Shown here piece after piece: positions 52,494 through 53,468 of a stretch of DNA of 64,000 nucleotides. Within the stretch, counting starts at the first letter, position 1. Each line of letters begins with the position of its first letter. The DNA lies in NCBI RefSeq assembly GCF_041886205.1, contig NZ_CP169031.1; one strand, written 5' to 3'. This DNA comes from Escherichia coli (GTDB taxonomy: Bacteria; Pseudomonadota; Gammaproteobacteria; Enterobacterales; Enterobacteriaceae). Position numbers and translations under genes: made by a program. Below the pieces are notes generated by a model. The model ran no database searches. It was not told the origin of the DNA and saw nothing but the letters and a program-made list of their open reading frames with translations.

Positions 52494-53468
52494 TTATCCG
52501 TTACCGCACGACGGTTTCTGCGTGATAAACGTCTCAAGCATCTTTTCCGCAATTGCCGACCAGGTGTGACACTGGACCTTTTCAGCATTTTTCACGCGAT
52601 CAACGCGAGCAATAACCTCATCCCAATCAATCCGCGACTTGATAACCATATGGTTCACCAAAGCCAGGCGATCTGGCGGAAGGCAATCGGGAGGCGTTAA
52701 TACCAACGCCCCGCACATTGCCGCCTCAAGTACAGTTAATCCAAGGCTTTCGGGATGCGTAACGATAAAAACGTCACTCTTACGCAATTCAGCTGCAAAT
52801 TCGGTTGCTGGCACCGGCGTCCGCCTGTATGGAGTTACCGAAATATTCCCCGGATCAATGGTAACCAATCCGTCATCAGTCAACGTTCTGGCCTCATACG
52901 GAACGGTCAGACGCTGAAGGTTCATAAGGATACTTAAGGAGTGATCAAAACCACTAACATCAAATGCAGCGTGGTCTACAAAAATACGCAGAACATCGTC
53001 CGTTTTGGTTTCCAGATGGAACAGCTCCTGATTCGCTGCCCATCCAACATGTTTGTTAAAGCGATTATGACGTTCTAACCGACCGGGATTATCCAGGTAC
53101 CGCCAGGTATCATCGCGGACAGTAAAAGTAATATCGACTGGTGCCGAATCCAGCATAGAACCGTCATATACCTGGGCTACCCATCCAGAGAATCGGCGAC
53201 ACAGTTGCATGCCTATTTCCCTGGGTACCGTAGTAAAATACCTCAATCCTGGTGCCAAAATGGCCTTCGCAGAACATGCTGTCGCAGCAGTCAACACAGC
53301 TTCAACATAATCCTCGGGGCTTTCGACGCCAGGGGAATATGGACGATGGTATTGCAATGTTACCCCAGCCTCACTAAAGGCGCAGGCCAGGTTGTAAGCC
53401 CACATTTCCGTATATGTTTTCACATCACTGATAGCTTCAAATTTTCGCCCAATGATCAGGATGTTCAT
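52494..53468 (-). CDS. GT-B fold glycosyltransferase-like protein
   Basis: C-terminal motif SDVFIVTHPESLGLTVLEAAMCGALVLTPP typical of GT4-type glycosyltransferases; lies in the ban-dbn operon. Confidence 0.6.
   Translation of the reverse strand: MNILIIGRKFEAISDVKTYTEMWAYNLACAFSEAGVTLQYHRPYSPGVESPEDYVEAVLTAATACSAKAILAPGLRYFTTVPREIGMQLCRRFSGWVAQVYDGSMLDSAPVDITFTVRDDTWRYLDNPGRLERHNRFNKHVGWAANQELFHLETKTDDVLRIFVDHAAFDVSGFDHSLSILMNLQRLTVPYEARTLTDDGLVTIDPGNISVTPYRRTPVPATEFAAELRKSDVFIVTHPESLGLTVLEAAMCGALVLTPPDCLPPDRLALVNHMVIKSRIDWDEVIARVDRVKNAEKVQCHTWSAIAEKMLETFITQKPSCGNG

Follow-up and report, generated by a model that had tools for sequence, protein, structure and literature searches.

Between the helicase gene ban and baseplate gene 5, bacteriophage P1 carries a gene that the P1 record names dbn (P1_gp078, YP_006544.1) and describes as "function unknown, possible glycosyltransferase". 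The counterpart in the P7 record is named glt, "putative glycosyltransferase", and RefSeq uses "glycosyltransferase family 4 protein" for the dbn product, also in RCS47 and P1-like plasmids. We analyzed the corresponding gene in a stretch of 64,000 nucleotides of Escherichia coli DNA (contig NZ_CP169031.1 of assembly GCF_041886205.1), hereafter the window. The minus strand holds an open reading frame (ORF) of 324 codons with an ATG start at 52494..53468, which confirms the ORF and the size given in a preliminary description of this DNA. Its product is 98.5% identical to P1 Dbn across all 324 residues, and identities to the homologues of P7, RCS47, SJ46 and JL22 lie between 97.5 and 99.4%. Approximately 3 kb around the gene share 98–99% DNA identity with P1, P7, RCS47, SJ46 and JL22, one extra segment excepted. 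Furthermore, the order of ban, dbn and baseplate gene 5 is the same as in P1, with dbn convergent to gene 5. Because the P1 record gives the name dbn to this very position and the two proteins are nearly identical, we conclude that the ORF is dbn itself, and that P1 Dbn, P7 Glt and the RCS47-type proteins are products of the same gene. The preliminary description had reserved the name dbn for the upstream ORF, which is in fact a 100-codon gene, here called orf100, on a segment of 275 bp that P1 and P7 do not have. The window thus differs from P1 in having orf100 between ban and dbn and in a dbn that starts at P1 residue 9, while the P7 allele has a nonsense codon at position 23.

The suggestion that this gene encodes a glycosyltransferase is therefore already known, being part of the public annotation of P1 and P7. 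What our analysis mainly adds is a link between dbn and three further P1 genes, pmgO, pmgP and pmgQ, which together are probably the scattered P1 version of a glycan cassette conserved among phages. Evidence for purifying selection on dbn and the description of the orf100 polymorphism beside ban are also new.

Several groups of described enzymes and systems invite comparison. Retaining enzymes of glycosyltransferase families 4 and 5 (GT4 and GT5), such as sucrose-phosphate synthase (6kih), BshA (6n1x), GlgM (6tvp), PimA (2gej), PimB' (3okc) and WaaG (8b5s), resemble Dbn in their GT-B architecture of two Rossmann domains, in a nucleotide-sugar site in the C-terminal domain and in the EX7E motif. 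Unlike these enzymes, Dbn shares only 8–15% identity with them, is approximately 40–130 residues shorter and has no N-terminal GT4 Pfam domain; where the first half of the Pfam family PF00534 fails to align, it has invariant residues of its own (D102, W143-A144, D165-H166 and D175). Phage DNA glycosyltransferases, namely the alpha- and beta-glucosyltransferases of T4 and the arabinosyltransferase of HY126 (9ir0/9iqz), have both the GT-B fold and a phage origin in common with Dbn. However, they score lower against Dbn structurally than non-DNA GT4 enzymes and are not its closest kin. The gtrABC serotype-conversion clusters are, like dbn, phage-borne and non-essential genes for adding sugars. 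Gtr systems combine a membrane flippase with a bactoprenol glucosyltransferase of the GT2 family and a polytopic GT-C enzyme, and they are expressed in lysogens. Dbn, in contrast, is a soluble GT-B protein with no hydrophobic segment, encoded in a C1-repressed operon, and does not fit the gtrABC pattern. Finally, mycobacteriophage virions are glycosylated by products of non-essential genes that lie within or next to structural or late operons (Freeman et al. 2023, as cited in PMC12619734). The Dbn- and PmgO-type genes of D3-, P2- and lambda-like phages are placed in the same manner, whereas P1 dbn lies in an early operon and no glycosylated virion protein is on record for P1.

Fold, motif and family of Dbn

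Residues 221–307 of Dbn match the Pfam family PF00534 (Glycos_transf_1) with E = 2.2e-5 and 24.5 bits, covering model positions 83–169 of 172, and a match to the same family is precomputed for the P1-type protein P0001. Within this region lies the EX7E-type motif that the preliminary description had noticed near the C-terminus: the stretch it quoted, PESLGLTVLEAAMCGALVLT, corresponds to residues 239–258 and contains glutamates E240 and E248 with seven residues between them. In an alignment of 57 Dbn homologues sharing 28–98% identity, both glutamates were invariant (57/57). They belong to a set of 14 invariant residues, the others being D102, W143, A144, D165, H166, D175, F234, T237, H238, S241, G243 and G253. 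The family is small: one database holds 74 clusters of it, and a search of 1.84 billion proteins returned 254 representatives at E<=0.001.

Structural comparison led to the same class of enzymes. An AlphaFold2 model built from the 57-member alignment reached a predicted local distance difference test score (pLDDT) of 94.6 and a predicted template modelling score of 0.90. The model consists of two Rossmann-like beta/alpha/beta domains with a C-terminal helix that returns to the N-terminal domain, as in the GT-B fold, and when it was compared with the PDB by Foldseek, the best 50 of 102 matches at E<=0.001 were all GT-B proteins. The Pfam match, the invariant EX7E motif and the structural matches thus agree with the earlier assignment of the product as GT-B glycosyltransferase-like. 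As far as computation can tell, Dbn would be a glycosyltransferase.

On the other hand, a number of observations speak against an ordinary GT4 enzyme. The N-terminal half of Dbn had no Pfam match even at E<=10, Glyco_transf_4 and Glyco_trans_4_4 included, and positions 1–82 of the PF00534 model, its first half, were left unaligned. This is the part in which GT4 enzymes are expected to hold their arginine or lysine phosphate ligands, and it is here that the Dbn family has its invariant D165-H166 pair instead. When the PDB was searched by sequence, with the single protein as well as with the family profile, the EX7E stretch alone was matched. Similarly, hhalign of the Dbn profile with WaaG aligned 38 columns, all of them around EX7E. 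Because sequence similarity stops at EX7E and the first half of PF00534 is unaligned, we classify Dbn, by sequence, as a GT4-like outlying family rather than as a typical member of GT4.

More specific assignments were considered and rejected. Homology to the lipopolysaccharide (LPS) core enzymes WaaS, WaaG and WaaB was dismissed, as hhalign against K-12 proteins aligned nothing past the EX7E helix. A search of NCBIfam with Dbn returned sub-threshold GT4 fragments only, and PADLOC had no match for Dbn or the orf100 product at E<=1; on these outcomes we assigned Dbn neither to a defence system nor to a named family. Relatives of 520–630 residues carry C-terminal extensions, of approximately 200 residues in most, which gave no functional clue since they matched neither Pfam nor PHROG; the exceptions were one methyltransferase and the PmgO-type fusion protein P0141 described below. 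Dbn itself is acidic, with an isoelectric point (pI) of 5.5 and a mass of approximately 36 kDa. No membrane-binding segment was found in it, and the top Kyte-Doolittle window of 19 residues scores 1.53 and lies within the EX7E helix.

Cassettes of Dbn homologues and the pmg genes of P1

Genomic context was read in 11 independent non-P1 loci carrying a Dbn homologue. A PmgQ-type gene (phrog_1962, 209–242 residues) neighbors the Dbn-like gene in 8 of the 11; it lies directly downstream in 7 of these 8, and in the eighth (L027) a methyltransferase gene intervenes. The full set of PmgO-type (phrog_4603), PmgP-type (phrog_2111), Dbn-like and PmgQ-type genes was present in four enterobacterial-type loci, namely in a lambda-like contig, a P2-like contig, a contig with RdgC, and the virulent E. 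coli phages IME392 and EP_H11. Partial cassettes, consisting of Dbn-type and PmgQ-type genes or of single members, were found in jumbo and D3-like phages, and the loci on large contigs (47–281 kb) add genes for nucleotidyltransferase, GT8-like, pyruvyl-transferase and methyltransferase proteins. In one metagenomic protein of 522 residues, P0141, a PmgO-type domain (residues 30–215, phrog_4603, E=1e-42) is fused to a Dbn-type GT-B domain (residues 218–514). Counting organisms, all phage records with a Dbn homologue (22/22) also hold PmgQ-type and PmgO-type homologues, while these partners occur without Dbn as well, for example in JK004, phiNP and D3-like phages.

The virulent phages IME392 (MH719082.1) and EP_H11 (OP688485.1) encode their own RNA polymerase, PolA, thymidylate-synthase variant and topoisomerase. 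Their cassette has five genes, in the order phrog_2114, phrog_4603, phrog_2111, Dbn-like and phrog_1962, and closes a block of DNA-metabolism genes.

When the IME392 and EP_H11 partner proteins were searched against phage genomes by tblastn, they matched P1 itself, the phrog_1962 protein corresponding to pmgQ and the phrog_4603 protein to pmgO. All four families (phrog_4603, phrog_2111, phrog_2518 and phrog_1962) are encoded in the window, by pmgO, pmgP, dbn and pmgQ, respectively. Identities to the cassette members are 28–43% for PmgO, 46–56% for PmgP, 28–48% for PmgQ and 47–56% for Dbn, and across the same loci the Pmg identities rise and fall with those of Dbn. PmgP is a distant paralogue of PmgO and resembles WaaZ and MptE-like proteins through a chain of weak matches (via L013). 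The phosphatase gene ppp sits between pmgP and pmgQ, near the slot that the Dbn-like gene takes in most contiguous cassettes, just upstream of the PmgQ-type gene.

In the window the four genes are not contiguous, though all lie on the same strand: dbn is 6–8 kb away from pmgO–Q, and the tail genes 26-25-7-24-6-5, on the opposite strand, as well as pmgL–N lie in between. In P1, pmgN-O-P-ppp-Q has its own C1 operator and is found downstream of the late promoter LPpmgL. The genes pmgO, pmgP and pmgQ are annotated with "putative morphogenetic function", and none of the papers that we searched ties them to dbn. Since homologues of Dbn form cassettes with PmgO, PmgP and PmgQ types and P1 encodes all three, we interpret Dbn as contributing one step to the assembly of a glycan. 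Overall, dbn, pmgO, pmgP and pmgQ probably make up a dispersed set for building a glycan, with Dbn as one of its enzymes.

The ban operon, orf100 and dbn alleles

Coordinates of the features discussed here and above are collected in the table.

Table. Features of the window relevant to dbn and its putative partners.
Feature	Position	Strand	Details
dbn (P1_gp078 orthologue)	52494..53468	minus	324 residues; GT-B fold, GT4-like putative glycosyltransferase
EX7E region, codons 239-258, PESLGLTVLEAAMCGALVLT	52695..52754	minus	E240 at 52749-52751, E248 at 52725-52727
Bidirectional intrinsic terminator hairpin	52447..52473		between convergent gene 5 and dbn
orf100	53465..53767	minus	100 residues, basic; phrog_12809; P1/P7 alignment
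ban, DnaB-like replicative helicase	53767..55137 (start codon approximate)	minus	phrog_19, E=8e-144; P1 annotation
P1dbn, predicted sigma-70 promoter sequence inside ban	53988..54020	minus	identical to P1 record
P2dbn, predicted promoter sequence inside ban	54377..54404	minus	identical to P1 record
tRNA, CAU anticodon (trnI of P1 ban operon)	55418..55493	minus	ARAGORN; P1 annotation
pmgO	45897..46559	minus	220 residues; phrog_4603 ('alpha-2,3-sialyltransferase'-like), E=4e-74; P1 annotation
pmgP	45373..45999	minus	208 residues; phrog_2111, E=1e-131
ppp, NinI/lambda-like Ser/Thr phosphatase	44699..45391	minus	phrog_246, E=3e-113; P1 annotation
pmgQ	44001..44702	minus	233 residues; phrog_1962 ('glycosyltransferase'), E=4e-128

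The start codon of orf100 overlaps the ban stop (TGATG), and the orf100 stop overlaps the dbn start (ATGA at 53465–53468), so the reported overlap of the gene with the stop of the ORF upstream was borne out. An AAGGAG Shine-Dalgarno sequence lies 5 nt upstream of the dbn ATG. Directly 3' of dbn we found the hairpin of the terminator, with an 11-bp stem, a 5-nt loop and T-runs on both strands; its RNA folds with -18.5 kcal/mol (z = -3.9), and 0 of 200 shuffled sequences folded as well. A consensus scan from ban to dbn revealed no intrinsic terminator of note, only a weak 5-bp stem inside dbn, and site counts were those expected from shuffled sequence. Because of the start/stop overlaps and the terminator right after the gene, dbn is the last cistron of the ban operon, which is C1-repressed: the P1 record has a C1 operator/promoter upstream of the operon, and upstream of ban, the tRNA genes and the TerB-like tciA of the window are arranged as in P1. 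In a P1vir transcriptome from a Δhfq host, ban was the only gene of replication to be over-expressed at 20 min; dbn was up at that time as well, which fits co-transcription. Placement of dbn in the ban operon, as first proposed, is thus supported by the overlaps, the lack of a notable terminator in between, the hairpin after dbn and the co-varying RNA levels. The term replication operon, also used in the preliminary description, suits the ban helicase gene but does not cover the tRNAs and TerB-like tci genes that the operon carries as well.

In a three-way alignment, reference P1 and P7 lack the 275-bp segment of orf100, which stands after codon 4 of P1 dbn as annotated and before the methionine that is residue 9 of P1 Dbn. 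The orf100 product has a pI of 9.8, and the G+C content of the gene (0.389) differs from that of ban and dbn (0.48–0.49). The complete insert was present in 52 PLSDB plasmids, compared with 436 that have full-length dbn, and in 0 of 18 P1-like phage records carrying the region. A homologue of the orf100 product (34% identical) is encoded directly after a Ban homologue (83% identical) in Cronobacter phage JK004, with the same stop/start overlap; JK004 is without dbn. The orf100 product had no Pfam match and very few homologues, and its AlphaFold2 model (pLDDT 88) gave no significant fold match. In the 57-sequence alignment, every Dbn homologue begins where Met1 of the window protein, or P1 residue 9, is located. 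Comparison of the P1 record (NC_005856.1, 72659-72683) with window positions 53756..53767 shows that MQWN of P1 Dbn matches the orf100 start, MQRK. Since all homologues start at the window Met1 and these two tetrapeptides are alike, the eight extra N-terminal residues of the 332-residue P1 Dbn annotation (MQWNEEKP) are, judging from the alignments, probably a vestige of the orf100 start after loss of that gene.

In a genome-wide CRISPR interference (CRISPRi) screen of P1, dbn was non-essential, and likewise pmgO, pmgP, ppp and pmgQ (PMC10695390). The P7 allele (AF503408.1) has a nonsense mutation at codon 23 (TGG>TGA, W23*), for which reason P7 glt is annotated as 287 residues from a later start, and dbn is probably inactive in the sequenced P7. 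The remaining alleles told of constraint. The ratio of nonsynonymous to synonymous substitution rates (dN/dS) was 0.08–0.17, with dS up to 0.18, among five of six intact P1-like alleles, these five being P1, three plasmids of E. coli or Escherichia albertii and one Salmonella plasmid. The window allele fell in the same range when compared with the four plasmid alleles; the window–P1 pair, which is of low divergence, gave 0.30 from 10 substitutions. Residues invariant in the family were unchanged in all intact alleles compared. We conclude that dbn is under purifying selection. Besides the PLSDB plasmids, 477 complete E. coli genomes out of 5426 (~9%) contained dbn-like sequence, which is nearly always plasmid-borne.

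Alleles with 81–87% identity from vB_EcoM-673R5 and vB_EcoM-813R1 were dropped from the selection analysis, as their genes are split. In both records dbn and its neighbors, including the baseplate hub gene, are fragmented, and a frameshift sequencing error is a likelier cause than real divergence.

Two other genes of the window deserve a remark. The orthologue of P1 'pap' (putative acid phosphatase; 41857..42363, minus strand) matches polynucleotide-kinase families (phrog_415, E=3.5e-56), and because of these matches the name may be misleading. The pmgM orthologue (46723..47301, minus strand) matches Holliday-junction-resolvase/VRR-NUC families (phrog_5702, E=5.9e-27) rather than a morphogenetic function.

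Possible acceptors of Dbn and alternative explanations

We propose that Dbn would act as a soluble, acidic, retaining GT4-like enzyme with the EX7E signature in a two-Rossmann GT-B fold. Most likely, it would take a sugar from a host nucleotide-sugar and transfer it to a hydroxyl of a non-DNA acceptor with configuration retained. The gene is coupled to ban through orf100, and its transcription ends at the terminator that dbn has in common with gene 5, the convergent baseplate gene. Dbn would build a short glycan jointly with PmgO, PmgP and PmgQ, providing one of the steps. Leaving the choice of acceptor aside, we hold this explanation, from the identity of dbn and its GT4-like product to the operon and the glycan set, to be reasonably probable.

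Concerning the acceptor, we tentatively suggest a structural protein of the phage, that is, glycosylation of the virion. Several loci point in this direction. A D3-like siphophage contig, with a capsid protein 55% identical to that of D3, has Dbn-like, sulfotransferase and methyltransferase genes inside its head-tail module. The cassette follows the terminase and portal genes in the P2-like contig and precedes the terminase gene in the lambda-like contig. In P1, pmgO–Q follow the late promoter LPpmgL, which we count with these pointers. Similarly, in the D3-like Pseudomonas phages, the PmgO-type gene of D3 (orf7, L032 4588..5046) lies between capsid and connector genes, and that of PAJU2 (ORF010, L031 4471..5040) lies in the head-tail joining region, where its record labels it 'structural protein'. 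The mycobacteriophage glycosyltransferases that glycosylate virions, as reported by Freeman et al. (2023) and cited in PMC12619734, provide a precedent.

At locus L028 (4575..7553), Dbn-like, 275-residue, galactose-3-O-sulfotransferase-like and Methyltransf_21 genes are found between connector and head-closure genes, and this set looks like one for tailoring a virion glycan. The 275- and 204-residue proteins of L028 agree in size with PAJU2 ORF011 and ORF012; we regard this as a coincidence, as BLAST detected no similarity.

Both the joint action of the four genes and the virion acceptor have observations to contend with. The four cassette genes of P1 are not contiguous but reside in two operons, and the early operon of dbn is a poorer fit to a role in the virion. 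The glycosyltransferase labels of PmgO, PmgP and PmgQ derive from PHROG and from weak or indirect matches (MptE-like, WaaZ, Nucleotid_trans). The closest non-P1 homologue examined, on a Citrobacter plasmid (58% identity), has no recognizable glycosyltransferase neighbor within 6 kb. The text of the P1 virion proteome paper nowhere mentions glycosylation, an absence of evidence only. Lastly, the acidic character of Dbn and its want of a membrane-binding segment say nothing for or against a protein acceptor.

A host envelope glycoconjugate, such as the LPS core, comes a close second to the virion acceptor and is itself a doubtful candidate. In that case Dbn, alone or with PmgO, PmgP and PmgQ, would act at the inner membrane face and add sugar to a glycan that is lipid-linked or part of the LPS core, for instance masking the terminal core glucose receptor, with less superinfection or less loss of progeny on debris as a consequence. 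The receptor of P1 is indeed LPS core glucose, and PHROGs places the PmgQ-type family in the class 'moron, auxiliary metabolic gene and host takeover'. Moreover, weak matches connect the PmgP-type family with WaaZ, the Kdo III transferase, and with MptE-like proteins, one chromosomal Dbn homologue adjoins a Wza-like polysaccharide export gene, and the genes are dispensable for plaque formation, as a conversion or exclusion function would be. However, profile comparison provided no specific tie to E. coli WaaS, WaaG or WaaB past the EX7E helix, and Dbn, at pI 5.5, has neither a hydrophobic nor a basic amphipathic segment such as membrane-associated GT4 enzymes usually possess. Both operons are C1-repressed, so expression should be low in lysogens, the very cells for which conversion would be important, and several homologous cassettes are situated inside virion structural modules. 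A surface-polysaccharide role, one of two put forward in the preliminary description, is thus possible, with support no better than that for glycosylation of virions or other proteins. A stand-alone enzyme that glycosylates a metabolite or signaling molecule without the pmg genes is unlikely. It would suit a compact, soluble protein of 324 residues with no adjacent glycosyltransferase in P1 or beside the Citrobacter homologue, and the best structural matches do use small acceptors, among them sucrose-phosphate synthase, BshA (malate), GlgM (glucose-1-phosphate), PimA and a tetrahydrobiopterin glucosyltransferase. Nevertheless, the strong pattern of cassettes, fusion and co-occurrence points to multi-step glycan assembly, and PADLOC and NCBIfam returned no match hinting at a signaling or defence context.

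The other role put forward at the outset, glycosylation of phage DNA against restriction, we consider very unlikely for P1. In its favor, dbn neighbors ban, dmt is just upstream of the operon promoter, and in IME392 and EP_H11 the cassette comes last in a block of genes for DNA metabolism. Ordinary restriction enzymes cut P1 DNA, which is protected by Dar and methylation instead. To our knowledge, all phage DNA glycosylation described so far needs a hydroxylated or hydroxymethylated base made by the phage, and P1 is not known to encode the means of making one. Non-DNA GT4 enzymes match the Dbn structure better than DNA glycosyltransferases do, Dbn is acidic, and the same cassette is found in temperate phages (lambda-like, P2-like and D3-like) that rely on the host for replication. 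Also counted for a DNA target are the HY126 system, which arabinosylates 5-hydroxycytosine (PMC13326640), and the placement of IME392 and EP_H11 in a proposed 'RP13-like' group with predicted sugar-hypermodified thymidine (PMC12686479, 2025). The reference phages with hypermodified thymidine, YerA41, RP13 and SP-15, were absent from the tblastn matches for Dbn, PmgQ-type and PmgO-type proteins, and we therefore rejected a general tie of the cassette to this modification. Least probable of all is that dbn is a stranded remnant of a cassette, functionless in today's P1. Dispensability under CRISPRi, the W23* allele of P7 and the distance of dbn from its usual cassette neighbors would agree with a relic, but the low dN/dS (0.08–0.17 in five of six intact alleles, with 0.30 for the window and P1), the intact family-invariant residues, the presence of the intact gene in hundreds of plasmids, and the retention of a strong Shine-Dalgarno sequence and of translational coupling all argue otherwise.

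Returning to the set of dbn with pmgO, pmgP and pmgQ, we cautiously suggest that it could be a previously unrecognized phage glycosylation system, dispersed in P1 and contiguous in the lambda-like and P2-like contigs, IME392 and EP_H11. Such a system would decorate P1 virion proteins or the host envelope with a short glycan, perhaps one containing an ulosonic acid. The gene dbn is widespread and selected, and P1 is a model phage and a common carrier of resistance genes. If the four genes do form one system, the classical transducing phage P1 would carry an undescribed glycosylation pathway, and glycosylation of its virions, if it occurs, would have consequences for host range, for immune recognition and for the use of P1-derived vectors.

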